Below, in pieces: positions 19,206 to 38,047 of a DNA stretch of 64,000 bases. Origin of the DNA: a bacterium (GTDB taxonomy: Bacteria; Hinthialibacterota; Hinthialibacteria; Hinthialibacterales; Hinthialibacteraceae); assembly GCA_963662285.2 (NCBI GenBank), contig CAXXMV010000008.1:1536001-1600000 (forward strand). Reading direction: 5' to 3'. Under the pieces are notes generated by a model that was given only the letters and a program-made list of their open reading frames with translations, ran no database searches and was not told the DNA's origin. A program made the position numbers and the translations under genes. The first letter of the stretch is position 1. Every line of letters begins with the position of its first letter.

Positions 19206-21464
19206 ATGAATACTAAGCGAATGATAAATATAACTACTGTGTTATTCGCATTATTGTTGCTGGCGATAACGAATAATACCGCAGCGGATTCAAGCGATCC
19301 TCTGGAACAATATAACGTTGTATGGGATGCGCCAAGTAAGGATCATAATGGTTCCATGCCTATCGGTAATGGCGATATAGGTATGAACGTCTGGGTTGAG
19401 CCGGATGGTGAGATAGTCATGCTGCTCTCTAAAACCGATGCCTGGAGTGAAAATGGCCGCTTGCTCAAACTAGGTAGGGTACGCATTAAACTGTCTCCCA
19501 ATCCTATAGTAGAAGGCGCTCCATTCAAACAGGTCTTACGGTTGCGTCAGGGAGAAATCGTCATTGATGCAGGTGAGGGGGATAAGGCTGTAATTATTAA
19601 AATCTGGATCGACGCCAATCATCCCGTGGTGCGCGTTGAAGCCGGTAGCGCCGCTCCATTTACGGTGCAGGCGTCGTTGGATATGTGGCGCACCGAACGC
19701 CGCCAATTGCTCGACAAGGAACTCAACAGCGCCTATGGATTGCAAAGCGCTCCATTTCCAGTTTACGTCTATCCCGACGCAATCATCAGCGACCGGGATA
19801 ATCAAATCGTCTGGTATCACCGCAATGAAACATCTATCTGGCAAAACAATCTAACCCACCAGAAAATGGATGGATTTATCCAGCAATCAACTGATCCGCT
19901 TTTGAATCTAACCTTTGGCGCTTGCATCACCGGAACCGGATTAGTCAGTAAAACTCCAACAACCTTACAATCAGACAAAACATACAAGCATCATGTTCTT
20001 TCGGTTTATCCACTTTGCGCGCAAACAGAGACCGCTGATATTTGGCAAAAGCAATTGGATAAAAATATTTCCAGTTATAGTTCAGATAATATAAAAAAAG
20101 ACCGCGACGGTCATCAGGCATGGTGGAATGAATTTTGGAACCGCAGTTGGATTCGTATTTCGGGAGCGCATGAAACCGAAGCCGTCAACCGGGGTTATGT
20201 CTTACAACGCTGGATCAGCGCCTGCGCCGGACGGGGCGCCTATCCCATCAAGTTCAACGGCACGATTTTTACTGTCGATGGCGATGGATTTGATGCTGAT
20301 TACCGCAGGTGGGGCGGGCCGTATTGGTGGCAGAACACCCGGTTGCCCTATTGGCCCATGCTGGCCAGCGGCGATTTCGATATGATGACTCCACTGTTCC
20401 GCATGTACCGGGATATGCTTCCTCTGGAGGAGTACCGCACCAGGCAATGGTTCAAGCATTCAGGGGCGTTCATCGGTGAAACAGTCTATTTCTGGGGGAT
20501 GTATAACAATGAGAACTATGGCTGGAAACGCGATAAAGATATGCCGGTTGGCCAATTGGTGAACCGCTATATCTGCCGTGAATACACCGCTTCGCTTGAG
20601 TTACTGGCTATGATGCTTGATTACTATGACTATATTGAAGACGACCAATTTTTGCAGGACAGTCTTCTTCCGATGTGCGACTCTCTGTTGAAATTCTGGG
20701 ATGAACATTATGCCAACGATGAAAACGGCAAGATGAAAATGTATCCGGCGCAGGCGCTGGAAACATTGCAGGACGCTGAAAACCCGGCTACTGATATCGC
20801 CGGGCTGCAATGGGTGCTGCAACATTTACTTACCATCAATAAAGATAAAACCGGGTTGGAACGACTGGCTTTCTGGAAAGGTCTGCTTGATAAGACGCCT
20901 CCATTGCCGATGGGCGAGAAGGATGGCAAAAAGTATATTCTGGGCGCAAGTAAGATAATCGGCGGGCGCGGCAATTCAGAAAATCCCGAACTATATACCG
21001 TTTTTCCCTTCAGGCTGTTCGGCGTCGGTAAGCCGGATATTGCAACCGGGCGTCTCACCTTCGATCTGCGCGAGGTTCAAGGTAAAAACGGTTGGCGGCA
21101 GGATGATACGCAAGCCGCATTTCTGGGATTAACCGAAACCGCCGCCAGTTATCTCGTTGAAAGGGCCAACGACAAAGATAAAGGCAGCAGGTTTCCCGCC
21201 TTTTGGGGGCCGAATTTTGATTGGATACCAGACCAGGATCATGGAGGCAATTTGCTGATGGCGTTGCAAACCATGCTGCTTCAGGCTGATGATGGCAAGA
21301 TTCATCTTATGCCTGCCTGGCCCAAAGAGTGGGACGTTGATTTCAAATTGCATGCGCCGTATAAAACCGTGCTTCAAGGTTCCATTAAAAACGGTAAAAT
21401 TGAAAACCTGAAAGTTTATCCACCGGAACGCCGCAAGGATGTGATCATCGTGACAGCCCGGTAG
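19206..21464 (+). CDS. Secreted GH95-like glycoside hydrolase (DUF5703 N-terminus)
   Basis: SMPIGNGDIG, KFNGTIF, WWQNTRLPYW, ENPELY, PDQDHGG and PAWPKEW. Confidence 0.8.
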   Translation: MNTKRMINITTVLFALLLLAITNNTAADSSDPLEQYNVVWDAPSKDHNGSMPIGNGDIGMNVWVEPDGEIVMLLSKTDAWSENGRLLKLGRVRIKLSPNPIVEGAPFKQVLRLRQGEIVIDAGEGDKAVIIKIWIDANHPVVRVEAGSAAPFTVQASLDMWRTERRQLLDKELNSAYGLQSAPFPVYVYPDAIISDRDNQIVWYHRNETSIWQNNLTHQKMDGFIQQSTDPLLNLTFGACITGTGLVSKTPTTLQSDKTYKHHVLSVYPLCAQTETADIWQKQLDKNISSYSSDNIKKDRDGHQAWWNEFWNRSWIRISGAHETEAVNRGYVLQRWISACAGRGAYPIKFNGTIFTVDGDGFDADYRRWGGPYWWQNTRLPYWPMLASGDFDMMTPLFRMYRDMLPLEEYRTRQWFKHSGAFIGETVYFWGMYNNENYGWKRDKDMPVGQLVNRYICREYTASLELLAMMLDYYDYIEDDQFLQDSLLPMCDSLLKFWDEHYANDENGKMKMYPAQALETLQDAENPATDIAGLQWVLQHLLTINKDKTGLERLAFWKGLLDKTPPLPMGEKDGKKYILGASKIIGGRGNSENPELYTVFPFRLFGVGKPDIATGRLTFDLREVQGKNGWRQDDTQAAFLGLTETAASYLVERANDKDKGSRFPAFWGPNFDWIPDQDHGGNLLMALQTMLLQADDGKIHLMPAWPKEWDVDFKLHAPYKTVLQGSIKNGKIENLKVYPPERRKDVIIVTAR

Positions 21465-21502
21465 ATAAGCCTATTGTTTTTAGAATCATCCTAACTTTAT
21501 AT

Positions 21503-21588
21503 TGGGTGGTTTGATCAAGGGCAGTCCTTTTTTTTCTGCCCTTGACTACACCTACGTTAATCCAATAACGTCTACCAACAAAAAAACA
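21503..21588 (+). repeat. Family-A hairpin with a conserved flank
   Basis: TGGGTGGTTTGATCAAGGGCAG-loop-CTGCCCTTGA followed by CTACACCTACGTTAATCCAATAACGTCTACCAAC. Confidence 0.85.
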
Positions 21589-21620
21589 TAGGATAAAACT
21601 GTAGGGGCGTCCTTCATGGG

Positions 21621-21820
21621 CAATGTCATTAAGTTAGACGAGTTGTCACCTCTCCCGCCGGGTGTAAAGGCCTGGGACATGGGAGAGGGCTAGGGTGAGG
21701 GGTAAATAAGGATCACTTAAGCTATTGATATAGCTGGGTGGCAAGGGCAAGAGCGCATTGCGCTCAGCCCTTGATCAAGCCACCACTGATAGGATGAAAT
21801 TCCTTAACTTAATTACATTG
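21621..21820. mobile_element. 200-bp MITE with IS4-like ends, inserted in a GTAG REP
   Basis: TIRs CAATGTCATTAAGTTA and TAACTTAATTACATTG match 15/16. Perfect 10-bp direct repeat CCTTCATGGG at 21611-21620 and 21821-21830. Confidence 0.88.
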
Positions 21821-21911
21821 CCTTCATGGGCGCCCAATATGACAAACTACAACAAATACCAAAAACTCCAAAGCGGAAGCCAAGGGCAACCCATTTCTTA
21901 TTCATAAATAA

Positions 21912-24900
21912 TCAAAACGATAAACGCAATGATATATTTCCCGTATTATGCTTCAAATTGATCAACAGAGCCTTCTGATCAACAAGATAACGCCATCCCT
22001 GCTGTTCAAATAATGTATCAAGTTTATCCAAAGCGCCGCTTGATTCGATAGCAACCTCGCTCGGAGGCTCATCAACCGGAGCAATAAGTATTGCCGTGTT
22101 GCGTCCCTTTTTGGATTGAACGGAAAATTCAAGATATTTCTCTGATAATGCATTATTGGTTATATCAGCGTTGGCGCTTATGCGGATTTTATCGACGCCA
22201 GCTTGACCGGGAAAAACGGTTCGGATATTCAAACTGTTGCCTTGCAGCGCATGAAGGTTAGTCATGATGTTTTCAGGATTAATCCACGCGCCATTGGCCC
22301 TGGTAAAATATTCACCGTAACTATCCGGCAGCGTACCGATGTATTCACCCTCAGTCATTTGCTGAAGCATGGCGGAATTAACAATTCCGGTAGCGATCTT
22401 CAACCAGGGATATGAATCATCAAATGGCGCCAGTTCCTGCAAGGCGTACGAATAAACCAACCCGCACCACTGCACCGGAACGCCTAACCAAGTGTGATGA
22501 AAAAACGTAGTACCAAAAATCGGGATAGTAGCATAACGCTGTAATGGACGATCCTCCAGATTCCATAAATAATGAAAAGGTATACCGCTTTTCGCCCAAT
22601 AAACCGCCTTATCAAGATACTTACGGTTCCCGGTTATTTGAAATGCATCAAGGTTCGCTCGCGCTCCATGAGCCGATACCAGGATATCCGCCGCCGCTAT
22701 GGGACACTCCCATCCCTGCGCTCCACGGGGGACGCTGCGTCGGTTCAAGGCTTCTAATGCTTTTAGCCCGCTTCGGGTGACTGCATCATCGCCTGTGATT
22801 AACGCCAGACGCATCAGAAACATTGCATTGGGTGAGATGGTTCCAGAAACTACCTGCCCCTCACCACCCAGCATCTGGCGATCTTTAGAAGGATGAAATC
22901 CCCATCCACCTTCAGGATTCTGCGACGCCCGCATACTAGAAGCCTGACGCATCCATTGAGGTAAAAGCGCTTCGGTCACTCCCCAATAGAAAGCAGGCTC
23001 AAACCGCATTACATGACATCCAGCGGGAGAACCTAAACCTGCGACGCCTTGAGTTTCAAGTATGTGTTTATGAACCAGCTGAGAACGCTGGCGTGCTGTC
23101 TGCTGATCTGCACCGCCTGGATTCAGAAAAACATCCAGATCAAGCAACGCCAACATTCCACCGGAACTAAGCGCACTCCATCCGGCGCAATGCCCCCAAC
23201 CCTTGGCGTCTTCATTCCAGCATGTATGTAAATAAGCCTGGCGGCTAAGTTGAATTTCCTCCGCATAACTCCTTGGCGCAGGCATAGGATCAGGAAAAGG
23301 ATTGCCGCCATAATGATTCTTGCCATAAATCTGCAACCATGCATCCAATGCGTCATTGGGATCATCGCTTTTCGATAAATACAACACGCTACCGATAGTA
23401 ACCGGGCGCTCCTGTTGCATGATGTATGGTTCAAAAGCCATGTCGTGGTTTTCCAAAGTAAAATCTGGAACATTCGGGATGAACAATCCGAAGAGACTAT
23501 TCTCTTGTCCATAGAGCCGGTTAGGAACGGCAAACTTAAGCGAATAACCACGCCGCCCTGGCGCCCATTCCAGATTAGCAGGCCACAACAGCGAAATGAG
23601 ATTTCCTTGATGAGTCAGCGACATATATGGAATGGTGTTCTTGTATGGATGCGGGATATACTGGTCGCGCACCGGAGGATGAGCGACGGCATCACTGGAA
23701 GAGACCGCATCCCGGTCCAGATATTCGATGCCCGGCAATACCGCCATATCTTTCGCACCGCCAAACGAGGCTTCCCCGATATACATTTCCGGTCCGGAGA
23801 AATAGAGCAAACGGCCTCCATTTGATGTAAGATAGTATTGATAACGAAAAGCGTCTGGAAGATTACTCAGTTTTTCTATAGAGCCGGTAAAGTTCCATTC
23901 ACGTCCATCCCGGTCAATAATTGTTTTGCTGAAACCAAGTCTTGAGATATTGTCGCTATCACCTTGAAACTGCAATTTATCCACCATAACCGGGTACAAA
24001 CCTATTGAACCATCGTTATGAAGTATCTTGATCAACGATAAATAAGGCATAACCGCCAGTTGAGACTTGTTTTGATCAAGGATCAACGCCGAACCATAAC
24101 CCATTTTGGTTTGAAAGAGACTGATTGAAAACTTATCACCTTCGATGACAACCTTATTTTTATCTGCTGAATCGCTGACAATGGTTATGAGTGATTGCAA
24201 CGCTCCAGCGGATTTATTGGATTCATCCCGGTCGCCCGATTCCCATTGGCACGAAACGCTCTTCATGCATTCTTCATTTATTTTTATATCCCAGGAGGCT
24301 TCCCCTCTTTCAAAAGGCGGGATGATAAGCGTCTTGGTTTGGGGAGCGTCATCATTGCCGTCCAGCCCAGTCAACGAAAGTTTCACCATTCCTTCAGCGT
24401 CTCCCTCATTGCGGTAACATGCCGTCAACTGAAAGGCTTGGCCGGGATTCGCTATAGGCTTATTAGGGTGAAAGAATACCGGTTTAATGATTGCCCCGGC
24501 GCGGTCGATGATCTTAAAGGAAGCAAGCCTGATTTTCGCCTTAGCATCAGTTGGATCAAGCCGCAAACGGATTATTTCACCCTTCCATTCGACATGGTTG
24601 GACAAAATCATGGTATATGAATGAAATTGGCCATCTGTACTCAAAGGCAGTTTTTTGCTTTTTCCCTCAGTGAAATTCGGATCATCCCTGGTCGCCCAAA
24701 AAAGTTGCAGCTGGGCGCCGCTGGTAACACTCATCTCAAAAACTATGGCTGCGTATTTTGCTGCATCAAAGTTCAACGCATTACTTTGAATATATGGATC
24801 AGCAGCGGTGGATTCAAATTGAAGGCCCCGCTGCGTCTGTTGTAATTGGCTTACATCATGCGCAGGGCGCCAATCCGAGGTCTGATTCAGATTACGCAAG

Positions 24901-24968
24901 ACATCCAGCGCCATGATGTTCATAGTTAATCCCAGAGTAAGAATAGCAACGAGGGTTATACGTTTCAT
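21912..24968 (-). CDS. Large secreted hypothetical protein (CBM-like N-terminus, probable alpha/alpha-barrel C-terminus)
   Basis: Signal peptide; QLFWAT..WKGEIIRLRLDP beta-sandwich; C-terminal QNPEGGWGF, VPRGAQGWE and YLDKAVYWA. Confidence 0.7.
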   Translation of the reverse strand: MKRITLVAILTLGLTMNIMALDVLRNLNQTSDWRPAHDVSQLQQTQRGLQFESTAADPYIQSNALNFDAAKYAAIVFEMSVTSGAQLQLFWATRDDPNFTEGKSKKLPLSTDGQFHSYTMILSNHVEWKGEIIRLRLDPTDAKAKIRLASFKIIDRAGAIIKPVFFHPNKPIANPGQAFQLTACYRNEGDAEGMVKLSLTGLDGNDDAPQTKTLIIPPFERGEASWDIKINEECMKSVSCQWESGDRDESNKSAGALQSLITIVSDSADKNKVVIEGDKFSISLFQTKMGYGSALILDQNKSQLAVMPYLSLIKILHNDGSIGLYPVMVDKLQFQGDSDNISRLGFSKTIIDRDGREWNFTGSIEKLSNLPDAFRYQYYLTSNGGRLLYFSGPEMYIGEASFGGAKDMAVLPGIEYLDRDAVSSSDAVAHPPVRDQYIPHPYKNTIPYMSLTHQGNLISLLWPANLEWAPGRRGYSLKFAVPNRLYGQENSLFGLFIPNVPDFTLENHDMAFEPYIMQQERPVTIGSVLYLSKSDDPNDALDAWLQIYGKNHYGGNPFPDPMPAPRSYAEEIQLSRQAYLHTCWNEDAKGWGHCAGWSALSSGGMLALLDLDVFLNPGGADQQTARQRSQLVHKHILETQGVAGLGSPAGCHVMRFEPAFYWGVTEALLPQWMRQASSMRASQNPEGGWGFHPSKDRQMLGGEGQVVSGTISPNAMFLMRLALITGDDAVTRSGLKALEALNRRSVPRGAQGWECPIAAADILVSAHGARANLDAFQITGNRKYLDKAVYWAKSGIPFHYLWNLEDRPLQRYATIPIFGTTFFHHTWLGVPVQWCGLVYSYALQELAPFDDSYPWLKIATGIVNSAMLQQMTEGEYIGTLPDSYGEYFTRANGAWINPENIMTNLHALQGNSLNIRTVFPGQAGVDKIRISANADITNNALSEKYLEFSVQSKKGRNTAILIAPVDEPPSEVAIESSGALDKLDTLFEQQGWRYLVDQKALLINLKHNTGNISLRLSF

Positions 24969-25313
24969 GCTGATCTCCTGTATACTTTTTAGTGATGATA
25001 CATAATATCATTTTTTCTTAAGCGGATAAGAACGTTATTATGCATATCTCTCTGATTTTGCATGGCGAATTTGAATCCCCATACAACGAAAGATCTTGAA
25101 TATTTGAGATTTACCTGTAAATTGGATAGCTTATAAAAGATGGACTATTTTATTGATATTATGTTCAATAAAAAAATTCTGGTTTCCTTTTTGCATTTTA
25201 TGTTTTGATAAAAATCATTATTTATATTCACGTATTCCCCGAATAAATGTATAATTATATTCCTGTTATGGATGTAGGGTCGCTAAAATAATATTATTAA
25301 TGAGGTCAGTTGG

Positions 25314-26591
25314 ATGTTATCAAAATATCGCGGCGATTTTTCGTCAAAAACTCTGGAAGATAGTTTAAAAAAAGTTCTTGATACCCGTCAAGAAGAAGAG
25401 ACTAAATTTAGAGCCAAGCATGTATATAAATGGACTATCATGTTTTGCGACGCCTCCCGGACTCTAAAAAAAGCCACAGATATCAGTGAAGAAAAACTCA
25501 AAGAACTCACGGCTGAGTATCGGGAAGTTATTACAAAGATAGCAAACAAATATGATCCTCCATATACCGCATCCGGCGATGGACCACAGTTGGTGATTTG
25601 CTTTGATTCTCCTGAAACTGCGGCCAACGCAGCCATAGAAATCCAGAAAGAACTCAAAGATTGGCGTTACCGTGATGATGGCGGCGCCTATTTCCGCCCG
25701 TCAATCGGTTTGAATTCGGGAGATTTCGTTATCAAAGATGATGACCTGAAACAATCCAACGCCTGCAACCTTGGCAAACGAGTCGAAACCCAAGCCAACA
25801 AAGCCCAGATTTTCTTATCGTATTCAACATATGAAGAACTTAAATCATACAGTAATTATAAAATTGCGTTTGAAAAAGAAGCTCTTCTCAAAAATATTCC
25901 TGATCCGCAAAATATTTACAATTTATCCTGGCAGTCATCAACCATTACAGATGTAGCGAAAAAAAATAATACAGACGATAAAGACGAATCACACTCTACC
26001 CCCTCTCCATCCGGGATTTTGGAAGAATTGGATGATAAAGTAAATATTGCTGAAAAATTCATGGGCATATTGATCTGCGACGTTGCTGGTTCTACCAAGA
26101 AATTCTGGAACCTGGGAGACCGCGAAGGCAATTTACTTATCGATATTTTCCGTAAAGAAGTTTTTATAATCTTAAAGAAATATAAGGCGGTGCATATCGA
26201 AATCCGCGAAGGGGATATGATCGTCGCTTGCTTCTCTCTTGATAAACCGATTTTGAATGTTATGGCTGGTATAGAAATTCAAAAGAACTTTTTCAGAAGA
26301 AATGTCGGCCTGGGCAGCAGAAACCGGGAAAAGATCGAATCGTCAATTGGTCTTCATGTCGGCAATTTCGCCGTAAGTAATAGCGAGATTGTTCCTAATA
26401 TGGATTTCTTTACCGCTAAAGGAATGCAGGATATGGCTGGCGCCAATGATATCTGCATCTCGGAAGAAATGGCCAACATGATTAAAGAATACACTCACAT
26501 GCCATTGGTTGAATCAGGAGAAACCACAGTAAAAGGAAAAGACGAACCACTTAAAATCTTCAATTTAGAGTGGTATAAATCTTCCAAATAA
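25314..26591 (+). CDS. Soluble protein with two tandem class III nucleotide cyclase domains
   Basis: Domain 1: IMFCDAS..SIGLNSG..NLGKRVE..QIFLS..LLKNI. Domain 2: LICDVAGST..EGDMI..SIGLHVG..DICIS..VKGK. Confidence 0.85.
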   Translation: MLSKYRGDFSSKTLEDSLKKVLDTRQEEETKFRAKHVYKWTIMFCDASRTLKKATDISEEKLKELTAEYREVITKIANKYDPPYTASGDGPQLVICFDSPETAANAAIEIQKELKDWRYRDDGGAYFRPSIGLNSGDFVIKDDDLKQSNACNLGKRVETQANKAQIFLSYSTYEELKSYSNYKIAFEKEALLKNIPDPQNIYNLSWQSSTITDVAKKNNTDDKDESHSTPSPSGILEELDDKVNIAEKFMGILICDVAGSTKKFWNLGDREGNLLIDIFRKEVFIILKKYKAVHIEIREGDMIVACFSLDKPILNVMAGIEIQKNFFRRNVGLGSRNREKIESSIGLHVGNFAVSNSEIVPNMDFFTAKGMQDMAGANDICISEEMANMIKEYTHMPLVESGETTVKGKDEPLKIFNLEWYKSSK

Positions 26592-26732
26592 AAAAATATT
26601 TCCTGTAAAACAACCGAGAGTATAAGAACTGACTGCGATCTTTTTAATATCACAACATCATCCGCCTTAGATATTACATCGCGTCGTTTCTTTTACATCC
26701 ACGCTCTTATGCAAAACTGGAGATTATCAAAC

Positions 26733-26993
26733 ATGGACGAATCTGCAAATACAGATAATTTCACTCAAAGCGTCATCAGCCGGATCAATCCCCAAATATA
26801 TTCAACATTATCCTCGGAACAGATTGAGGCATTGGCGCAAGCAGTATATTCATGCCGCCCCACCAAAAAACACTTAATAAATTTCCGGGGTTTTATACCT
26901 TTTTTCAAATCACGCTATTATTTCGTCTTCCTTTTCGGGCGCGACCGGCGCGCTGAGTCGCATGAGGTGCAGCATAACATGAGAAATTTATAA
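26733..26993 (+). CDS. Small conserved hypothetical protein, possibly C-terminally truncated
   Basis: The motif HLINFRGFIP..RYYFVFLFGRDRR resembles a small-protein family that I recall continuing into a membrane helix, which is absent here. Confidence 0.5.
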   Translation: MDESANTDNFTQSVISRINPQIYSTLSSEQIEALAQAVYSCRPTKKHLINFRGFIPFFKSRYYFVFLFGRDRRAESHEVQHNMRNL

Positions 26994-27108
26994 CGCCGAA
27001 TCCGGCGTCTTCAATCCCCCAATACTCTTTCTTTTCAATGTCAACTTAATGAACTGTATAAACAAACAGAACAGTTTACATAAAAAAAACGTGATTTCGA
27101 GAACCGTT

Positions 27109-28665
27109 CTATTGCAAGCCTTCAACCAAATCCTCACTTATTATGGTGGGACACCAGTATTTTTCTATATGCTCAATCACCAGTTGAGTTCCTGCGTCGT
27201 GAGAGACCTGCGGAGAATCTTTGGGGTCATACATTGCATCGGTTAAGTCGCGCACCAGGATGCATTTTTTGCCCCAGCGCGTCATCTGCCGGATGGCGAA
27301 TGAACGTCCCAGGATGCACATGTTGGTATGCACTCCCATGATGAGCAGGGTATCAATGCCTTCCTGCTCGATAAAGTTATATACTTCACGGCCATTATCA
27401 GATATACCGTCATATTTCCCAATGTCGATATGCTTGCTCTGCCGGGTCCAGGCGTGATACCAGGGCGTTTCGTCGGTATCGCAGCCACCATCTGAATCAT
27501 CGATGGGCAGCGGATGGGTTGGTATATCCAAGGCTTCCGGCAATGGGAAGACCCGCGCCAGTTGCATCCTGCGGCGTTGCGGCCAATCGAGGTAAAAACT
27601 CAGGGTATCGGACGGCGCGTGGATGATCTGGATGCCTCTATCGCGGGCTGCATTAACCACTTTGTTCATCTTCTGGGCGATGACTTCGCACCGCTCAGTG
27701 GCGCCGTTGCACCAATGCTTGTCCCACATATCGCAAATGATTATAGCCGTTTTGGCGACAGGCGTCTCTTGTTCAAAATTAATTTCCTCCCACTGATCCT
27801 TTTGTTCGGTGGACTCTTCACGGCTGCGTAATTTCAACTGAAGCGTTCCCTTGGGACGAGTGCGCTTTTCCGGGATTTCCAATTCGCTTCGCTCGACTTC
27901 ACATTGAGACGTCCAATACAGCGCATTGGCCAGCATGCGTTTGAATGAAGCGTTTTCGAAATCCTCCACGCCTCCCAGTTGAGTATAAAATACCCGGCCT
28001 CCATTAATGGTTCGCGTCCAGGCGGCGGGTTGCGGCTCTTTTTGCGTGGGGATTGTTGCGGTCATCAGCAAGTCGGCGTCATCAGAGATCGGCCCGGTTT
28101 TGTAGAGGCTGTAGCGGGAATACAAGGTTCCGATCCCGTCCAGTATGGGATGAGAATTTTTAGATTTTATGGTATTGGCTTCCATAGTAGGACCATTACC
28201 GAAATGGTTATGATAATTGCCGCCCAGAATTTCTTTATCGAACTCCAGCCAGTTCTGGAAACCATGACTGGCGGTGCGCACCGCAACAATGGCATTACCT
28301 GATTTACAATAATTCTTCACCATTTCCAGTTGTTCACCATCAATCAGCAAACGGCGGGTGAAAAATAACGCCGCATCGCAATCCTCCAACGCTTCCAATC
28401 CGGGCAACTGCTCGAATCCAATCGCTTTAAGCAAAGTGCATTCGATATTGTAATTACTCTCCAGATAGGTTTTGAATGCTGTAAGCGACGCATCAGAGTT
28501 ATACTCAGCCGATCCTGAAACCAGACAAACGCGCAGTGGTGGAGTTTCGAAATCAGCGTTTATAGAATTTACTGGCAAAAAATAAAAAACTATCAGAGCC
28601 GCTATAGCAAGAAGGAAATTACATTGGATGCTCGATAAAACTGAATTCCCGGCCTCATATTTCAT
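27109..28665 (-). CDS. Secreted ThuA-like plus isochorismatase/cysteine hydrolase fusion
   Basis: RTASHGF..GRVFYTQLG (ThuA), then IICDMWD, IHAPSD, MGVHTNMC and LVRDLTD. Confidence 0.85.
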   Translation of the reverse strand: MKYEAGNSVLSSIQCNFLLAIAALIVFYFLPVNSINADFETPPLRVCLVSGSAEYNSDASLTAFKTYLESNYNIECTLLKAIGFEQLPGLEALEDCDAALFFTRRLLIDGEQLEMVKNYCKSGNAIVAVRTASHGFQNWLEFDKEILGGNYHNHFGNGPTMEANTIKSKNSHPILDGIGTLYSRYSLYKTGPISDDADLLMTATIPTQKEPQPAAWTRTINGGRVFYTQLGGVEDFENASFKRMLANALYWTSQCEVERSELEIPEKRTRPKGTLQLKLRSREESTEQKDQWEEINFEQETPVAKTAIIICDMWDKHWCNGATERCEVIAQKMNKVVNAARDRGIQIIHAPSDTLSFYLDWPQRRRMQLARVFPLPEALDIPTHPLPIDDSDGGCDTDETPWYHAWTRQSKHIDIGKYDGISDNGREVYNFIEQEGIDTLLIMGVHTNMCILGRSFAIRQMTRWGKKCILVRDLTDAMYDPKDSPQVSHDAGTQLVIEHIEKYWCPTIISEDLVEGLQ

Positions 28666-28753
28666 GGTATTTCCACCCCTATCTATTATTATATAATTCC
28701 AAATCTTCGTCTCAAACTAAATCAATAGATTTTATGTTAATATAAAAAAGTTC

Positions 28754-29401
28754 CTAGGTTCCACCAACGACCGGAGAACAATTTACGCCGCCGCCGAAAC
28801 GCATTATATCGCCGTTGCTCATAACGCCGTTGGAAATTGCATATATTTTAAATCGGGTATTCAATAATCCGCGGCTCCATTCCAGCGGCCAGGCTCGTCC
28901 CCCGTCGTAATCCTTGTCTGGTCCTTTGGATGCCAGGCAGTATCCTTGAACTTTCTTATTTTCTCTATCAGGGCGCACTAGGTATTGTTTCAACGTATCT
29001 CCATAATAACCATCATAATTAGCGTATTCATACCAAGGTCCAGGAATTATTGATACAGGTATATTGACCGTAGTAGAAATATTTTCATTATTCTTCAGGA
29101 TATAATCGATATCCATAAAAGGATCATTGTAATCAGCGCTGGAAAGATATGAGACAGGGGTAGTCAACTCGATCAAATGGGTTTCGCTGCATTCAAACAA
29201 TTTAGGCCAGGGATGAAATTTGTAATCCATTTTGTATTGTTCGATAGCAAGAGCAATGGCGTTATGATCGGTATGGACGCGGGCTACCTTGGCGCGAATC
29301 AGCGCATCATAAAACCGGGGAACTGCTATGGCGGCCAGTATTCCAATAATGGCGACTACAATTAACAATTCAATAAGCGTAAAACCAGCCCGATGCTTCA
29401 T
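28754..29401 (-). CDS. Type IV pilin/pseudopilin-like protein with a prepilin cleavage site
   Basis: MKHRAG|FTLIELLIVVAIIGILAAIAVP. Start moved to ATG 29401 after AAGGAG. Confidence 0.9.
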   Translation of the reverse strand: MKHRAGFTLIELLIVVAIIGILAAIAVPRFYDALIRAKVARVHTDHNAIALAIEQYKMDYKFHPWPKLFECSETHLIELTTPVSYLSSADYNDPFMDIDYILKNNENISTTVNIPVSIIPGPWYEYANYDGYYGDTLKQYLVRPDRENKKVQGYCLASKGPDKDYDGGRAWPLEWSRGLLNTRFKIYAISNGVMSNGDIMRFGGGVNCSPVVGGT

Positions 29402-29496
29402 GATTTCTCCTTGCAACATTAGAAGCAGTATCAGATTGGATATCTCACTTACAAAATAGAACGATTCTCCTATCACATCGGTAATGGTGAAACATA

Positions 29497-29529
29497 GTGG
29501 GATACGCTGACGCTTTTAGCCCACCCTAC
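29497..29529 (-). repeat. GTAG-type REP hairpin
   Basis: Minus strand reads GTAGGGTGGGCTAAAAGCGTCAGCGTATCCCAC, close to the copy at 36726. Confidence 0.8.
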
Positions 29530-29546
29530 CTGCTTGATGCGCAAAC

Positions 29547-30266
29547 TTATTGCACTAAACCTTTATTAGACATGTAAATATCGCCCGACGATTTCAATCC
29601 ATTAGAAGCGCTAAAAGTGATTTTATACGCTTGATCATGCGCATAACTCCAGGCTTGTTGATCAATACGATCCGGCCCCAAACTCGTCATCGTATAAATC
29701 GTTCCGCTGGGTTTCCAAATGGCTCGAGGAGATTCCACCCCGCCGTACGGACCAGCGTACTGAAAAAAAGCCATGCTTTTGGGATGCATACCACGAGTGG
29801 CCGAGGAACCAAAATAGGGGTCCAAGGGGATTGATGAAATGTAGGCAACCGGCGTGGTCAATTTCGAGTAGGATAAATATTCATTCTGTGAAACGCCGCT
29901 CACTCCCGGCACGCCGCCACTGTCGTAATCGGGAACGTAGGAGTTGAAATCCAATCGATACATCTCCATTGCGCTGTTCAACGCTTTCAAATCGGCGTAG
30001 GTGCGCGCCACTTGAGCTCTCATCTGCGCATTCAAAAAATTAGGTACGGCAATGGCCGCCAAAATCCCGATAATCGCAACCACGATCAGCAACTCGATTA
30101 GCGTGAAACCTTTCTTTTCAAAAAATCCTTTTCGCCAACGGTAAATCACGGTTGGTTTCAGATTATTTTCTTCGCATTTATCAGATACAAGAATATGGTT
30201 AATCAAATGACTTCGTATGAGAGTCACCTTCTCTTGCGGGGAATAATGCCTATGGATTGTCTTCAT
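29547..30266 (-). CDS. Pilin-like protein whose leader is an IS3 OrfA HTH fragment
   Basis: Residues 1-51 resemble IS3 OrfA, followed in frame by KG|FTLIELLIVVAIIGILAAIAVPNFLNAQ; GGAGG RBS. Confidence 0.85.
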   Translation of the reverse strand: MKTIHRHYSPQEKVTLIRSHLINHILVSDKCEENNLKPTVIYRWRKGFFEKKGFTLIELLIVVAIIGILAAIAVPNFLNAQMRAQVARTYADLKALNSAMEMYRLDFNSYVPDYDSGGVPGVSGVSQNEYLSYSKLTTPVAYISSIPLDPYFGSSATRGMHPKSMAFFQYAGPYGGVESPRAIWKPSGTIYTMTSLGPDRIDQQAWSYAHDQAYKITFSASNGLKSSGDIYMSNKGLVQ

Positions 30267-30386
30267 TTGGATTTCCTCCGTTTAACTATACGAGAACGAT
30301 TCTCAATATTGCGTGCGTTAATACTGGTTTTGTTAACAGCAATAACTTAAACGATGGATAATATCATTTCCAACTTAGACAATACA
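30114..30386 (-). mobile_element. IS3-family left-end remnant (putative IRL plus 5' part of orfA)
   Basis: RHYSPQEKVTLIRSHL..VSDKCEENNLKPTVIYRWRKGFFE fits the IS3 OrfA HTH pattern. TGTATTGTCTAAGTTGGAAATG starting at 30386 is a TG-initiated candidate end. Confidence 0.7.
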
Positions 30387-30416
30387 AGCCTACCTGGCTA
30401 GGGTGGCATCAAGGGC

Positions 30417-30508
30417 CAATGTCATTAAGTTAACTGTGTTGTCCCCTCTCCCGCCGGGAGAGGATTAGGGTGAGGGTTATTTACAAAACAACTTAGTTAA
30501 TGACATTG
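30417..30508. mobile_element. 92-bp MITE with IS4-like ends
   Basis: Perfect 12-bp TIR CAATGTCATTAA / TTAATGACATTG. Perfect 10-bp direct repeat CATCAAGGGC at 30407-30416 and 30509-30518. Confidence 0.9.
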
Positions 30509-30514
30509 CATCAA

Positions 30515-30539
30515 GGGCGCCCACGAGGAGCGCTCCTAC
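30515..30539 (-). repeat. GTAG-type REP hairpin
   Basis: Minus strand reads GTAGGAGCGCTCCTCGTGGGCGCCC. Confidence 0.75.
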
Positions 30540-30586
30540 GTGATTTATATCAATACTCACAATCCATAGAGAGTTCTTGCATCACT

Positions 30587-32480
30587 CTATTCTACAGATT
30601 TAGCGGCGAAAATCTCCTTGAAATAATCTGCTTTATCTTCATTGCGGATCAAGTCGATATATTTCGGGCCTCCGCTGTATTCGACCATAACCGTTTTAAA
30701 GAGGTCGCCTGAAAGAAGCAGTAATTCGATTTTACGCGTTGCTACACTGTCGGCGATAGCGTCTTTGAGGCGGTTGAGGCTGAATTTGCGGTTGTCTACG
30801 CCGATGATTTTAGCGTCTTCAAACAGCCCCGCTTTATCCGCCGCGCCGCCTGGAATAATTCCGGTTATGGTTCCATTGTCAGATACTTTCATACCCAGTG
30901 AGGAGAGCGACGGGTCTTTATCATAATCGGTCGGCTCATTGGCATAGACGATGCGGTATCCAAGACGGTCAAGCACGGTCAAGGGTAAATCATCATGCCA
31001 GCCGCGCACACCGGTCTTCGATCAGGGCTTTCCAATCGTAGGACATCACTTGATTGAGTAAGTCAATGACATCCTCTTCCGTGAATCCCACCCGGTTTTT
31101 AGAACTGTCATACCGCCCCAGAAACTTACGAACGAAATCATCCAGACATAGTTCGCCATCGCTCTCATCCCGCAGAATGCCGTCAATTTCATACCACAGC
31201 AGGGCGCCTTCGAAATAGTAATCCTGCGCCCGGTTGAGCCGCGACCAATATTTCCCCCAGCGGCGCCGTAGGTATGAGGATGACGCGGTATCTTCGAGAT
31301 TGGTGGATCGCCGTCCTTTTTGCTGCATCAACGAGACGATGGTTTTGCCTACGCCGACCCATTCATCCTGCAAACCGCCTTCGAATGAGCTGCGTTCGGC
31401 GGTCTTAAAAAGACCGGAACGCGCCGTCAGAACCACGCCCAGGCATTGATCGAGACCTTCATAAACCCAAAGCAGCCTTGTGTCCTTGGGGGTGTTATGA
31501 TCGGGCGTGACCATCCCCGCCGGGCGGTGATATTTACCGCACCAGCGGTGTCCATATTCGTGGGCTAACAGATGCCCGGTCACGCGCAGATTTTCGAAGT
31601 CGAGTCCACGTTCACCAACAGCATTGAGACTGGATCGTAGATGCTCTAAACCGAGGAAAGGGAAACTATCGCTGAGAATAAGCAGAAAATGATAATCGTA
31701 ATTGTGCTCGGTTCCATATAGAGCCATAGCCTGGCTGACCAGGGTTTTGAATTTATCAACTGTTTCCGGTTCGGGGTGGATGGCTTGTTTTGATTCGGAA
31801 ATCAAATGCAGGTAATGGGGCGTCCCGTTTTCGGGGGTTATATCATACTTGTTGTAATACTCTCCGCAGATCAACGGACTATCAACCAGCTCGCGGTAAG
31901 ATATCCGCTCAAAAACTGGATGTGATGCAGTATCATCTTTAGCGATCAGCGAGGAAGCCCATTGCCATTGGTCTGGTAATTTGAGTGTGAGATCGACATC
32001 AACATCGCTGATGTCATGACCGGATGGATAGAGCAGGCAGGTGTTCCAGCAAATAACGCCGATTTGAGAGGTTCCATGCGAATCGACGCCTAACGAATTA
32101 GCGTTGGCTTGATTGCAAATATAGGTTGTCTCGACCACCATCCGTTTGGCGTTTTTAGGGACCTGGGCGATGAAATGAAAAACATTATGGGGGTCGCGAT
32201 GCCATGAGACCGGTTTTCCATCAAGCGTTTTGACGCTTATTTCGGCGAGATTCTGAATGGGGCTGGTGGGGCCGTGTACGCCCTCAAGCCATTGCGGGTA
32301 ATAGAAATCAAACTGCCCCTGCGACACGCCGTAGGTGGTGGAGGCTTTGAGCAACCCACGGGGCAGATCGATTGCATCGACCTCAGCCGTGATAACCACA
32401 GCATTGGATATTGACGGCAGCAGAAAAATAGTAAGTAATATGGAGATAATCAGATAGCGGTTATTACGAATCAATTTCAT
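30587..32480 (-). pseudogene. M61 glycyl aminopeptidase with a C-terminal PDZ domain, split by one +1 frameshift near 31010 (possibly an assembly error)
   Basis: ELVDSP, GLEH, LLAHEYGHRWCGK and LWVYEG. Removing one base joins EDR to VRGWHDDLP..GIIPGGAADKAGL (PDZ). Confidence 0.8.
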
Positions 32481-32648
32481 GGCTTCAGGTTCCTTGTCAT
32501 TTAGATCATGGAGATTGCTATTACCATATGATAGTAACATAATTCAGTTCAGGAGATAATTGATGTGATCATCATATTTTAATTATTGAAACGCAAAAAG
32601 AGTTCTCCTTAAGCGAGCCTGTGCTGAATACGCAGGAAGGGATTTAAC

Positions 32649-34131
32649 ATGAAAACAGGTTATTCTTTATTATTGGCGACTGGATTGATTTTTGTCTTTG
32701 CTTTACTCCCATTGGCCGGGGAGGAAATCAATCCAGACTCTCGAATCAATGTGAGCGGCGTGTTTCCCCATTTGGCTATGGTGGCTGATCATACGCCTCG
32801 CACTGAAGCGGGAACCGGCGCCATGGTTCCCTGGGCGAACCGATTGTGGATTATTACCTATGTAGCGCACATGAAAGGCACCGGCTCTGGAACCGGGTTA
32901 TATGAAATAGACGAAAACCTGAATATGCACAAGCGGCCGGAAAGCGTGGTTGGAACCTACGCCAACCGCATGATTCACACCGAAAGCCAGCAGTTGATTA
33001 TCGGTCCCCATATCATTGATACCGAAGGCAATGTGCACACGATAGACGGAGTGAAAGACCACCGCTTGACCGTGACCATGCGGCATCTGACCGATCCGGC
33101 GCATAAGGTTTATTTTCTGGCTATGGAAGGACAACTGTTTGAGGTCGATGTTCATACCCTGCAAACCACGCTGCTCTTCAATCTGCTGGATGAATTAAAG
33201 GTTCCCAAAGACGCTAAACCCCATTTCAAAGGTGGTTTCACGGCGCATGGGCGCGTATTCGTGGCTAATAATACATACGATGAACGGGATTATAACAAAT
33301 CATGGAGCGCGGGACGTCTGGGCGCGTGGGATGGAAAGACGTGGACTGTGATTGATGATAATCCCTATACCGAAGTTTGGTGCCCCACGATCATTTGGTA
33401 ATGCTGTTTTCGCCACTGGCTGGGATAACGCTTCGGTTATACTCAAAGTGCTTACGCATGGAAAATGGTCTACCTATCGTTTACCCAAAGCCAGCCATAC
33501 CTTCGATCAGACCAGTTGCACAGAATGGATGCGTATCCGCGAAGTGGAAACCGAACGGGCCTTGATGGATTGTCATGGCATGTTTTACGAAGTTCCTTAC
33601 CATGCCTATGATGGGAAAATTTGGGGCATTCGACCTATATCGACGCATCTGCGCGTGATCCCGGATTTCTGCTCGTGGCGCGGCATGTTGGTGTTAGGCG
33701 GAAACCAGTCTACTCCTATGTCATTCGGAACGGATAGAAACTTAGTCGCCGGGCAACCGCAAGCCGGTTTATGGTTTGGCAAGACGGACGACTTATGGAG
33801 TTTTGGTAAACCTTCTGGCAGTGGAGGCGTTTGGCGTGACCTCTTCAGTGAAAAAGGGCGAACATTCCGATCCATTCCTGATGCGGGGATTTGATAAAAA
33901 AGTTGTGCATTTTAAGGCTGACTCAGATCAAGTTCCAGCCTTAGATAGAGCTCCAATTTTTACTATTGAAGTAGACTTTATGGGTAATGGAACCTGGGTT
34001 CCCTAATAAAACTATTCCAGTTTTCGACGGTTATGCTTTTCACGCTTTCCCTGATGGTTTCAGCGCCGAATGGGTGCGCATAACCGCAAGGCAGGATTGC
34101 GTGGCTACCGTCTAATTTCATGTATTCGTAA
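32649..34131 (+). pseudogene. Secreted conserved hypothetical protein broken by 3-4 single-base insertions (possibly assembly errors)
   Basis: Track ORFs 32649-33401, 33352-33894 and 33776-34006 plus frame 34008-34115 join when one base is removed at about 33378, 33841 and 34005, and probably 34114. Confidence 0.75.
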
Positions 34132-34220
34132 ACAGGGCTTTGGAATAATAAATACTGAACATACTTTGAAGAACAGTTCTCACCAGTATAATAAGCGAAA
34201 GCAAAGAAAGGGATTTATAC

Positions 34221-35688
34221 ATGAAACGTTTAGCATCTTTCACATTATTAATATTTTTAGTTGTTTTTTTCCGTTATGGATAGCCGCGCTGATATGAGTT
34301 TAGCGTATGTTGATTTATTTGACGGTAAAAGCCTGGATGGTTGGAAAGCCAACGAGAACCCCGGTTCTTTCATTGTACGCGACGGAATGCTGATCTGCGA
34401 AGGCCCCCGCTCCCATCTGTTTTATGATGGGGATGTTGAGGGCGCGGAATTTAAGAATTTTGAGTTGGTTGCTGAAGTGATGGCTACCCCCGGAGCTAAT
34501 TCGGGCATCTATTTTCATACCCGGTACCAGGAAGAAGGATGGCCTACCAAAGGTTATGAAGTGCAGATCAACAACACTCATCGCGGCGAGGGAGAATACC
34601 GCGAACTGAAAAAGACCGGCAGCCTCTATTCGGTGCGCAATGTTTATAAGTCAATCGTAAAAGATAATGAGTGGTTCACGCTGCGCATCAGCGTTATCGG
34701 CGATAAAATTACCATCTTAGTAAATGATGTTATAGTCATGTATTACACTGAACCCAAGGTTCCGGTTCGTTCAAAAGAAAAAACTGAACGAATACTCTCC
34801 AGCGGAACTTTCGCCATCCAATGTCATGATCCAAACAGCAAGGTTTATTTCAAAAGCATCAAAGTGGCGCCCATACCTGATAGCAAAAACAACAAAACAT
34901 ATGATTTCAGTTCCATAATTGTTGATGACCGCTATAAACAAATCCAGCAACTACAGGAAGGCAACTTTCCCCTGGTTGATTTCCACGTTCATCTCAAGGG
35001 TGGTCTTACGATTGAAGACGCCATTTTTAATTCATTTAAAGTCGGCATCAATTACGGCGTTGCGCCGAATTGCGGAGTAGGCTTCCCTATTACTGATGAT
35101 GCCGGGATAGACCAGTTCATCGAAAGCATGAAAGGCAAGCCGGTGTTTTTGGGGATGCAGGCTGAAGGCCGCGAGTGGGTCAATATGTTTTCCAAGGAAG
35201 CCATAGCCAAGTTCGACTACGTCTTCAGCGACTCGCTGACATTCACCGACGATAAGGGACGCCGCATGAGATTATGGATGAAAGATGAAGTCTTTGTTGA
35301 TGACAAACAGGACTTCATGGATATGTACGTGCGGAGCATCGAGTCTGTCATCAGCAATGAGCCAATCGATATTTTCGTTAATCCCACTTTCCTGCCGGAA
35401 TGCATTGCTGAAGAATATGACGAACTGTGGACCGAAGAGCGGATGATGAAAATAATCGATGCGGCGGTCAAACATAACGTGGCCATCGAAATCAACGCCC
35501 GCTATAAAATCCCCAGCGTCAAATTCATAAAACTGGCCAAAAAAGCGGGCTGTAAGTTTGCTATGGGAACCAACAACATGACTCCCGAACTGGGGCGGTT
35601 GGAATACAGCCTGGATATGGTCAAAGAATGCGGTCTGACCTGGGATGATATGTTCATGCCGAAATCAGCAGGGTGGATAGAGAAATAG
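34221..35688 (+). CDS. DUF1080 (3-keto-disaccharide hydrolase-like) plus PHP-domain protein; signal peptide frameshifted at a T7 run
   Basis: LFDGKSLDGW, ANSGIYFH, GYEVQI and AIQCHD, then DFHVHLKG and AIEINAR. ATG 34221 (MKRLASFTLLIFLVVF) joins the main frame if T7 at 34264-34270 is T6. Confidence 0.8.
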
Positions 35689-35795
35689 TATTAGTAAATT
35701 TAGCCCTCACCCTAGCCTTTTATCGCGCGGATAGGGCGCTTTGTTATACGACATTTATGATTAGTAAGAGTACTATAACGAAAAGGAGTATAACC

Positions 35796-36692
35796 ATGAC
35801 AAGAATGATTGCATCAACAATAGTATTTCTCGCATTAGTCATCGCTTTGCCCGTTGCCGGAGTGTGTGAAGATATCATCGCTCCCGGCGCCAAAGTTGAA
35901 AAACTGGCGGGTGATTTCAAATTCACCGAAGGTCCGGCGGTCGACTCGAAGGGTAATGTGTTTTTTACCGACCAACCCAATGACCGGATATTGAAATGGA
36001 GTGTTGATGGTAAACTGACAACCTTTCTACAGCCCTGCGGCCGATCCAATGGCCTCTTTTTTGATAAGCAGGATAACCTGCTTTCCTGCGCTGATAATAA
36101 AAATGAACTTTGGTCGATTGACCCCAGCGGCAAGGAGACTGTCCTGGTCAAAAACTATCAGGGTAAACTGTTAAACGGCCCCAACGATTTATGGATCAGG
36201 CCTGACGGCGGCATCTATTTCACCGACCCATTCTACAAACGCCCCTATTGGGATCGTGGTCCAGTCGAGCAAGACGGCCAATGCGTCTATTTCTATAAAC
36301 CATGCTGTAAGAAATTTATCCGCGTTATAGATGATTTTGAGACGCCTAATGGAATTATCGGGACGCCGGATGGCAAGACGCTTTATGTCTCCGATATCAG
36401 AGGCAAGAAAACCTACTCTTACAGCATCACAATGGATGGAACGCTGACTGACAAAAAGTTATTCTGCGAACTGGGATCAGACGGCATGACCATAGATAAT
36501 GAGGGCAATGTCTATCTAACCGGCAAAGGCGTCACCGTTTTCAACAAAGCAGGCCAACAAATATCTCATATCGATGTTGCAGAAAATTGGACCGCCAATG
36601 TGTGCTTCGGCGGGAAAGATATGAAAACGCTGTTCATCACCGCCAGCACAGGTTTCTATAGCATTAAGATGCGGGTTAATGGAGTTCGATAA
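35796..36692 (+). CDS. SMP-30/gluconolactonase/LRE family protein
   Basis: FTEGPA, FTDQP, SNGL, NGPND, PNGI, SDGMTID and ANVCFGG. Start moved to ATG 35796 after AAGGAG. Confidence 0.92.
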   Translation: MTRMIASTIVFLALVIALPVAGVCEDIIAPGAKVEKLAGDFKFTEGPAVDSKGNVFFTDQPNDRILKWSVDGKLTTFLQPCGRSNGLFFDKQDNLLSCADNKNELWSIDPSGKETVLVKNYQGKLLNGPNDLWIRPDGGIYFTDPFYKRPYWDRGPVEQDGQCVYFYKPCCKKFIRVIDDFETPNGIIGTPDGKTLYVSDIRGKKTYSYSITMDGTLTDKKLFCELGSDGMTIDNEGNVYLTGKGVTVFNKAGQQISHIDVAENWTANVCFGGKDMKTLFITASTGFYSIKMRVNGVR

Positions 36693-36702
36693 TTAGTTAA
36701 AA

Positions 36703-36764
36703 GTAGGGTGGATTAAAAGTATTCGGTAGGGTGGGCTAAAAGCCGCGAAGCGGCGTAGCCCACC
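36703..36764 (+). repeat. GTAG REP, one partial and one full copy
   Basis: GTAGGGTGGATTAAAAG, then GTAGGGTGGGCTAAAAGCCGCGAAGCGGCGTAGCCCACC. A degenerate copy lies at 37017-37044. Confidence 0.8.
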
Positions 36765-36774
36765 ATGATATATG

Positions 36775-37871: not shown

Positions 37872-37880
37872 TGGTTTTGA

Positions 37881-37907
37881 TGGGTCGATAAAGCCGACCT
37901 ATCCTAC
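37881..37907 (-). repeat. GTAG-type REP hairpin, degenerate
   Basis: Minus strand reads GTAGGATAGGTCGGCTTTATCGACCCA. Confidence 0.6.
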
Positions 37908-37923
37908 GCATAAGATAAGGCGG

Positions 37924-38039
37924 ACTGGGTGACAAGGGCAAGAGCGCATTGCGCTCAGCCCTTGATCAAACCACTAACGATAGGGTGAAAATTCCTTAAC
38001 TTAATGACATTACCTTTCATAGGCGCCCTGCCGGGCGCA
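37924..38039 (+). mobile_element. One-ended MITE fragment (family-A hairpin plus IS4-like right end) between 15-bp direct repeats
   Basis: 37925-38028 aligns with 21734-21835. CATAAGATAAGGCGG occurs at 37909-37923 and 38040-38054. Confidence 0.8.
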
Positions 38040-38047
38040 CATAAGAT

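Follow-up and report, generated by a model that had tools for sequence, protein, structure and literature searches.

Probable miniature derivatives of an IS4-type insertion sequence in the hairpin repeats of a Hinthialibacterota genome

Two short elements with shared ends in the window

We analyzed a window of 64,000 nt (positions 1,536,001 to 1,600,000 of contig CAXXMV010000008.1; G000:C8:1536001-1600000) from a Hinthialibacteraceae bacterium (assembly GCA_963662285.2; G000, hereafter this genome), concentrating on 2 short elements, E1 and E2, that share their terminal sequences and lie in hairpin repeats. Plain coordinates refer to the window, and prefixed ones (C1, C2, etc.) to contigs of the same genome. 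E1 occupies 21621-21820 (200 bp) and is bordered by exact 10-bp direct repeats, CCTTCATGGG, at 21611-21620 and 21821-21830; its tips read CAATGTCATTAAGTTA and, on the opposite strand, CAATGTAATTAAGTTA, agreeing at 15 of 16 positions. E2 spans 30417-30508 (92 bp), carries an inverted repeat at its tips that is perfect over 12 nt, and is bordered by exact 10-bp direct repeats of another sequence, CATCAAGGGC, at 30407-30416 and 30509-30518. An earlier note on this DNA had described 2 elements with common ends and differing perfect duplications, and both were recovered where it had placed them. The window holds 6 matches to the 12-mer end with at most 1 mismatch, against 0.63 expected, and none of 100 shuffles contained 6 or more. 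A match at 39419 falls within an open reading frame and was rejected as probably fortuitous.

Both elements sit in hairpin repeats. On the forward strand, E1 is preceded at 21601-21620 by the left half of an interrupted GTAG repetitive extragenic palindromic (REP) sequence (GTAG, first arm, loop, and 3 nt of the second arm), in which 21611-21620 form the first duplication copy, and is followed at 21821-21835 by the right half, in which the second copy (21821-21830) gives way to the rest of the second arm. Removing E1 and 1 repeat copy leaves 25 nt, GTAGGGGCGTCCTTCATGGGCGCCC, in agreement with the GTAG REP pattern of the genome, and these 25 letters recur with similar flanks at intact paralogous sites, e.g., C2:345074(-) and C8:778949(-). 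The proposal that removal of E1 restores a REP agrees with the 25-nt product and its intact copies, which act as empty sites of paralogous kind. E2 lies at the overlap of a family-A-like arm (GGTGGCATCAAGGGC), which contains the first duplication copy on the forward strand (30407-30416), with a reverse-oriented GTAG REP at 30515-30539, which is overlapped by the second copy (30509-30518); this overlap bears out the junction of the 2 repeat types noted before.

The interiors of the elements are likewise built of hairpins. We classed each end as a left (IRL) or right (IRR) inverted repeat according to its likeness to the ends of insertion sequences (ISs). The composite E1, read on the forward strand, consists of an IRR-type end (21621-21636) followed by ACGAGTTGT, similar to the 3' terminus of the transposase coding sequence; a BoxC-like hairpin (21647-21702); the remnant of a degenerate IRL-type end (21703-21721); and a complete family-A hairpin (21734-21784), which is joined through a tail (21785-21804) to an IRL-type end (21805-21820). 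E2, on the same strand, has an IRR-type end (30417-30432), a BoxC-like hairpin with an GGGTGAGGG arm (30441-30476), and an IRL-type end (30493-30508) of a variant form, with AAC in place of AAG. The hairpin CCCTCTCCC-loop-GGGAGAGGG, for which "BoxC-like" serves as a handle only, is present in both elements, as had been noticed. The longer element had also been credited with a whole family-A hairpin and a 21-nt loop insert: both are there, and the insert (21663-21683, forward strand) proved to be a remnant of a separate mobile element, identical at 21 of 21 positions to the tip of the IS481-like element described below. As single-stranded DNA, E1 and E2 fold at -42.3 and -17.6 kcal/mol, with z scores of -7.3 and -4.9 relative to shuffled sequences, and an Rfam scan of 21000-39000 returned no family above threshold.

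Another match to the end, at 38001-38012 (the 38012 end), is real but does not mark the end of an IS. It belongs to a one-ended 88-nt unit on the reverse strand (37925-38012), consisting of an IRL-type end (TAATGTCATTAAGTTA), a 27-nt tail, and a family-A hairpin, with neither a mate end nor a duplication. Its tip abuts a REP half on the forward strand (38013-38028: CC, loop TTTCAT, arm AGGCGCCC) at the loop position that is also cut by E1. The Escherichia coli IS4 repeat to which this end had been likened was given correctly: one end in the K-12 record reads TAATGCCGATCAGTTAAG and matches the 38012 end at 14 of 18 positions.

We found no second full-length copy of E1 or E2 in a BLAST search of the genome, where the highest-ranking further match extends over 140 of 200 nt for E1 and over 72 of 92 nt for E2. 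Contigs assembled from 2 read runs (1 sample of 1 study) bridge E2 unchanged and break within the family-A hairpin of E1; no joint skipping either element was present in these contigs, which contain the filled form only and do not inform on rare empty sites.

Family-A hairpins also occur next to a different kind of duplication in the window. The ribosome-binding region and first 12 codons of the gene at 37071-37871 are present twice, in a 69-nt direct repeat (36760-36828 and 37040-37108) whose copies are 280 nt apart and 94% identical, and 2 family-A hairpins lie between them, so that the hairpin block appears to have entered together with a long duplication of the gene start.

Copies of the ends in this genome and its relatives

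Across the genome, the 16-mer end occurs 120 times with at most 2 mismatches and the 12-mer end 67 times exactly. Classed by inner sequence, 67 of the 120 ends continue into a 27-nt tail and a family-A hairpin, forming the 88-nt IRL unit, 41 continue into a BoxC-like hairpin of 1 of 2 subtypes, and 12 into something else. About two thirds of the ends (84/120) are unpaired, and exact 10-bp duplications stand directly at both tips in 3 of the 18 nearest plus/minus pairs. A relaxed scan, allowing up to 5 mismatches per end, a spacing of up to 6 kb, and a duplication of 9 to 12 bp with at most 1 mismatch, yielded 6 elements of 92, 173, 180, 200, 544, and 740 bp with duplications of 10 to 11 bp; a few further pairs have duplications with 2 mismatches. 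The family exists here mostly as fragments: roughly 55 of about 205 BLAST matches to the family-A core extend to the end, and of about 95 matches to the BoxC-like core, 24 reach one end and 5 the other. As in MITEs (miniature inverted-repeat transposable elements), the elements are small, lack a transposase, and have ends in many copies, with the exact architectures of E1 and E2 being single-copy. Median pairwise identity is 83% among the IRL units and 60% in the other end class, and the repeat family is old in this genome.

Units with these ends also form tandem arrays with periods of 198 to 236 bp (C2:1477390-1478011, C2:819720-819933, C8:889961-890181, C8:918823-919074, and C8:937832-937901), and in 1 tandem array the period, of 18 nt, is the end itself.

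The tip of the IRL unit is a true transposon junction, in that units 98.9% alike abut different targets exactly at their CAATG tip. We looked around the 88-nt units for a duplication, a second end, or the other half of the REP and saw none. The genome contains about 370 free family-A hairpins as well as a few reciprocal units that combine an IRR end with a family-A hairpin, e.g., at C3:139509. Our best guess is that the IRL units arose by recombination between the hairpin inside a MITE and a free family-A hairpin, giving deletions or inversions that end exactly at the outer boundary of the hairpin.

Complete copies with duplications are far from confined to this genome. We searched 31 genomes for the exact 16-mer end and found it in 12, from 2 families of the order, and its reversed control in none. 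G019, from another family of the order, has 101 ends with at most 1 mismatch, and 31 of the 32 complete copies examined there (137 to 144 bp) have a duplication: 20 are exact 10-bp repeats, 8 are 10-bp repeats with a single mismatch, 2 measure 11 bp, and 1 measures 12 bp. These copies have a median pairwise identity of 97.9% and represent a recent burst. In G013 and G014, 4 of the 5 complete copies fetched have duplications, 1 of them with a mismatch. The expectation that other copies would show duplications is thus borne out in the related genomes and, in this genome, for the 6 elements only.

The sequences between the ends vary by genus and are always local hairpin repeats: a long GGGAGGGCGAGGCTCCCGCCGAGCC hairpin in G019 and G014, a BoxC-like or C-rich hairpin in G013, and BoxC-like plus family-A hairpins in this genome. 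Furthermore, 2 copies in G013 are inserted inside the hairpin family that serves as the inner part in G019 and G014. The suggestion that the elements carry other hairpins as cargo holds as far as this composition goes; the route by which the hairpins were acquired is one that we infer. In G013, G014, and G019 (loci L153-L166), many contigs begin 20 to 95 nt inside a MITE, indicating that such repeats break short-read assemblies.

Other mobile DNA uses the same hairpins. An IS481-like element of 1.5 kb, with an integrase-type reading frame of 388 aa, is present in 18 copies of 99% to 100% identity and was therefore probably active recently. Of 19 of its ends examined, 12 lie in BoxC-like hairpins, mostly in the loop, and 4 in the loops of C-rich hairpins. 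One copy (C6:673220-674789) lies within a MITE (C6:673197-674797), in its BoxC-like loop, and the 21-nt remnant found in E1 recurs as a stand-alone sequence at C2:88599.

A further element, ~450 bp long, has inverted repeats (CTACTCTCCGTACACA...) and inner hairpins of its own and lies in the loops of BoxC-like hairpins in at least 7 places: L012 (C6:941400-942500, at positions ~330-790 of that locus, inside C6:941687-942230), C2:1611794, C6:848934, C6:1147088, C6:1212924, C8:251596, and C8:968591. It carries the remnant MPDHVHILLT, which resembles a motif of Y1 (HUH) transposases.

The parent insertion sequence and its targets

No pair of ends in this genome encloses a fitting transposase. Two candidates for a full-length element were rejected, the 1601-bp pair C6:673197-674797, which encloses the IS481-like element, and the 2468-bp pair C2:862109-864576, which encloses ordinary genes. 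What this genome retains is a transposase remnant (C8:1342613-1342866) that abuts an end (C8:1342851-1342866) and shows 41% identity over residues 146-220. An inverted-repeat search at 5 DDE_Tnp_1 loci of this genome gave no usable ends, and among the other DDE_Tnp_1 genes, bounds could be set only for the 2-copy element C1:527323-528832, whose ends differ (ACACTAGTGTCCGG, with an 8-bp duplication). A fragmented IS4-family transposase at C8:1133848-1137291 (L005), comprising 3 DDE_Tnp_1 pieces in different frames, is related to the 395-aa transposase of that 2-copy element.

G011, from the same family, contains 2 truncated DDE_Tnp_1 genes beside ends, with the motif YHERWGIEENFKTMK upstream and the stop codon inside TAACTTAATGACATTG. 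The 223-aa fragment encoded there matches NF033592 and PF01609, with a score on NF033592 (75.5 bits) below the cut-off, and a search of 26 genomes of the order with this fragment returned only truncated or weak matches, in 4 genomes. The element may have escaped assembly in G011 and G001, each of which has a contig whose first bases lie just inside a left end of IS type.

Full-length homologues, of 396 to 483 aa, are common in public data, the best (437 aa) being 90% identical. Proteins P0002, P0004, and P0005 score 192.7, 183.4, and 189 bits on the curated NCBIfam model NF033592 (transpos_IS4_1; cut-off 115). In the alignment of 10 full-length homologues (A1), D126, D201, and E310 are invariant, with spacers of 75 and 109 residues, as are the residues of Y303-x2-R306-x3-E310-x6-K317, i.e., the YREK signature. 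We then considered 80 loci with relatives of this transposase, drawn from many phyla in a scan of species-representative genomes, and sought matches to CAATGTCATTAAGTTA (at most 5 mismatches per end, 1.2 to 2.2 kb apart). Both ends are present at 63 of the 80 loci, mostly 1385 to 1650 bp apart (1 pair is 2186 bp apart), and 19 of these 63 full-length loci have an exact 10-bp duplication. The parent ISs encode a DDE/YREK transposase of 425 to 480 aa and have the ends CAATGTCATTAA(G/C)TTAAG on both sides. The autonomous IS4 with these ends that the earlier note had called for exists elsewhere, at those 63 loci; inside the clade we found remnants only, 2 in G011 and 1 here. At 3 full-length ISs from other phyla (L053, L068, and L070), the 13 nt outside the ends form inverted rather than direct repeats; either a palindrome holds the IS at its center and no duplication was made, or an exchange of flanks has taken place.

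The 2 end types of the MITEs correspond to the 2 ends of the IS. The end on the family-A side resembles the IS left end (TTAAGGAATTT versus TTAAGAAATTT in G011 and G001), and the sequence ACGAGTTGT kept at the other end of E1 resembles the last codons of the gene, ACGAGTCTGT. In the end CAATGTCATTAAGTTAAG, positions 2-5 are AATG and positions 14-16 are TTA, consistent with -AATR--------WTW. That pattern, together with a length of 1400 to 1650 bp, the YREK signature, and duplications of 10 to 13 bp, defines the IS4 subgroup in Table 1 of PMC2266710, with which the duplication length given in the earlier note agrees, and the same source gives the DDE spacing of the IS4 family as D(60-110)D(100-150)E. 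The parent IS agrees with the subgroup in its ends, size, single reading frame, DDE spacing, YREK signature, and duplications of 10 to 12 bp.

Targets of the ends are non-random, as had been claimed. Among the 120 end flanks, 61 belong to 4 classes of hairpin repeat, namely, 35 REPs, 10 C-rich CCCCCTCTAACT repeats, 8 arms of BoxC-like hairpins, and 8 family-A boundaries, and the other 59 include several variants of these classes. All 35 REP flanks consist of an arm plus the loop plus 2 to 3 nt, cut always at one position. For 40 of 120 ends, the 14-mer at the junction has 3 or more copies in the genome; among control sites drawn at random, the same holds for 33 of 300 non-coding and 15 of 300 genomic ones. 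An 11-mer, being too short a word, was uninformative. GTAG REPs number 35 strict intact copies, with TTCAT as the commonest loop (17/35), and about 112 hairpins when GTAG is not required. Cut REPs draw their loops from the same range as intact ones, and their outer flanks differ, which points to mostly separate events.

Insertion into REPs is also biased in orientation. Of the 30 REP-flanked ends for which orientation was read, 23 are IRL units, and 21 of these stand by the arm distal to GTAG. The 2 exceptions, by the GTAG arm, are C4:127569 and C8:1008637, the latter by reading of its flank (the script labels 4 ends as GTAG-side). All 7 non-IRL ends stand by the GTAG-side arm, which in 2 cases bears TTAG instead.

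In G019, about 19 of the 32 restored targets lie in 1 repeat, CAACCCCCTCCTAACCTCCCCC...GGGGGAGG. This preferred target (loci L105-L148) contains a purine/pyrimidine mirror repeat, GGGGGAGGTTAGGAGGGGG, beside a CCCCC-loop-GGGGG hairpin, and the duplication is centered on the TTA/TAA of the mirror repeat. Target choice of this kind has precedents: the IS4-family ISRm22 inserted into REPs at the axis of the palindrome in 10 of 10 copies in the account of PMC1525189, and PMC2266710, where it deals with some members of the IS4 subgroup, terms their target conservation "spectacular."

Origin of the elements and their place among known systems

We consider it very probable that E1 and E2 are non-autonomous derivatives, i.e., MITEs, of an IS of the IS4 family and IS4 subgroup, with the following mechanism. 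The parent is an IS of 1.4 to 1.65 kb with ends CAATGTCATTAA(G/C)TTAAG and 1 DDE/YREK reading frame whose stop codon lies inside the right end. Its transposase, supplied in trans, would bind both ends of a MITE, excise the element, and join it to a target with a stagger of 10 bp (sometimes 11 to 12 bp), and the stagger would give rise to the direct repeats. The lineage favors palindromic or otherwise structured targets, namely, GTAG REPs around the loop, mostly in one orientation, and further BoxC-like hairpins (in their arms), family-A hairpins (at their boundary), and the C-rich CCCCCTCTAACT-type repeat. As hairpin repeats cluster, insertions would come to lie next to or inside one another, and any 2 outward-facing ends could then move together with the DNA between them. 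E1 would be a MITE of the 92-bp type whose inner end decayed and which became joined to an adjacent unit of family-A hairpin and IRL end, the composite having moved as one piece into the REP loop. In this genome, we found no intact transposase that could act in trans in the same cell, only a remnant, which points to past rather than present activity and makes E1 and E2 fossils. The layered system proposed in the earlier note, with DDE-mobilized MITEs in REP-like hairpins, draws support from the ends, the duplications, the parent IS, and the biases in target and orientation, with mobilization in trans as its putative driving step.

Several observations weigh against this origin. Outside any end-to-end pair with a duplication are 110 of the 120 ends in the genome, and REP halves flanking an end can mimic imperfect duplications, for which reason only exact or 1-mismatch cases were counted. 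An intact transposase with these ends was found neither in this genome nor in the 26 genomes of the order searched with the 223-aa fragment. All 67 IRL units share one inner limit, namely, the family-A hairpin's outer boundary, with unrelated DNA beyond, and such a fixed limit is not predicted by simple decay. The target counts are not fully independent, in that some units belong to tandem arrays (C2:819720, C2:819918). Finally, the movement of E1 and of E2 as wholes is attested in each case by a single trace, the duplication of the element itself.

A more novel reading retains the MITEs and concerns the process. The transposase may recognize the shape of DNA, such as extruded hairpins or mirror repeats, and insert at the loop in a set orientation, and the 67 IRL units may be products of an undescribed process, either one-ended or involving recombination between hairpins. 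We hold this pair of ideas, taken jointly, to be rather unlikely. On this reading, the interiors of MITEs would be rebuilt repeatedly from abundant host hairpins, and families of elements and targets would co-amplify across genera.

A rival explanation holds that the "terminal repeat" is one module of a palindromic mosaic, resembling the bacterial interspersed mosaic elements (BIMEs) of enterobacteria and spread by recombination, replication slippage, or a REP-associated tyrosine transposase (RAYT), with the duplications in the window being by-products of joined REP halves. It would account for the solitary state of most ends, the fixed inner boundary of the 88-nt unit, and the tandem arrays with their 198- to 236-bp periods; microhomologies do link REP arms and family-A ends, and Y1 transposase genes are present, with 6 matches in the genome, 3 of which have RAYT-like open frames of about 190 aa. 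However, full-length IS4-subgroup elements of many phyla have an identical end, and the duplications of E2 (CATCAAGGGC) and of C6:941687 (GATAACGGGC) are not REP loops. The switch between targets exactly at the CAATG tip of nearly identical IRL units and the duplications of 10 to 12 bp at 31 of 32 copies in G019 also speak against a mosaic, which we judge very improbable.

It is no less doubtful that the elements are true IS4-type MITEs whose inner hairpins arrived later rather than being carried. Later arrival certainly occurs for other DNA in these hairpins, as illustrated by the IS481-like element in the loop of the MITE C6:673197-674797, its 21-nt remnant in E1, and the ~450-bp element in the loop of C6:941687-942230 and at least 6 other places. 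Yet the 32 copies in G019 occupy different sites, have the same inner hairpin at a median identity of 97.9%, and are flanked by duplications, so that the hairpin moved with the ends, and the IRL tail and family-A hairpin are kept as one unit in 67 copies. Chance formation of the terminal and direct repeats, for which one might cite the density of GC-rich palindromes in the region, can be dismissed given the 6 matches in the window against 0.63 expected and none of 100 shuffles, the 67 exact copies of the 12-mer, and the 3 nearest pairs, of 18, whose tips both directly adjoin exact 10-bp repeats.

The derivation from an IS4-subgroup IS places E1 and E2 among known kinds of element, i.e., MITEs, REP-seeking ISs, and IS4-family cassettes. 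E. coli IS4 itself, a copy of which has a 12-bp duplication, is a distant relative: besides the 14 of 18 positions shared with the 38012 end, its InsG is 24% identical to P0002 (E 7e-21), its end starts with T whereas the ends here start with C, and the window holds derivatives rather than the IS. Among named relatives, the nearest that we found is the ISPa1635 family (a name from RefSeq plasmid annotation), with about 40% protein identity, a length of 1636 bp, and ends beginning with CAATGTCATCAAC; it belongs to a different clade from the parent IS here, and a closer named element may exist. The IS231/MIC231 cassettes of the Bacillus cereus group are non-autonomous IS4-family derivatives with IS ends and foreign DNA inside; they represent a different subgroup, and their passengers are genes, whereas those here are hairpin repeats.

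ISRm22 of Sinorhizobium meliloti, ISPsy8, ISPa11, ISPpu9/10, IS1397, and IS621, as they are presented in PMC1525189 and PMC3184786, use a fixed point of the REP near its axis, and the REP is restored on joining the flanks, as here. These REP-seeking ISs are autonomous and make duplications of 3 or 6 bp or none, whereas the elements described here are MITEs with 10-bp duplications; unlike those ISs, they target several unrelated repeat families and are themselves built of such repeats. The Nezha and Chunjie MITEs have ends shared with ISs, flanking duplications, and a strongly folding interior, as here; they were dated by orthologous empty sites, and REP targeting is not among the features given for them in the relevant passages of PMC3184786. 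Our literature search found no paper on IS4-subgroup MITEs that target REPs, nor one on the present combination of features and its distribution over several genera, which is not proof that none exists.

The results do not change the understanding of how IS4-family elements move. They allow part of the many small repeats found here and in related genomes to be annotated in a clean and checkable way and name the responsible clade of transposases. A single lineage of the IS4 subgroup keeps ends of 16 to 18 nt across phyla, and its miniatures are rebuilt from local hairpins in each genus. Several unrelated mobile elements land in hairpin repeats here, which fits the view of REP-like repeats as safe havens for mobile DNA.

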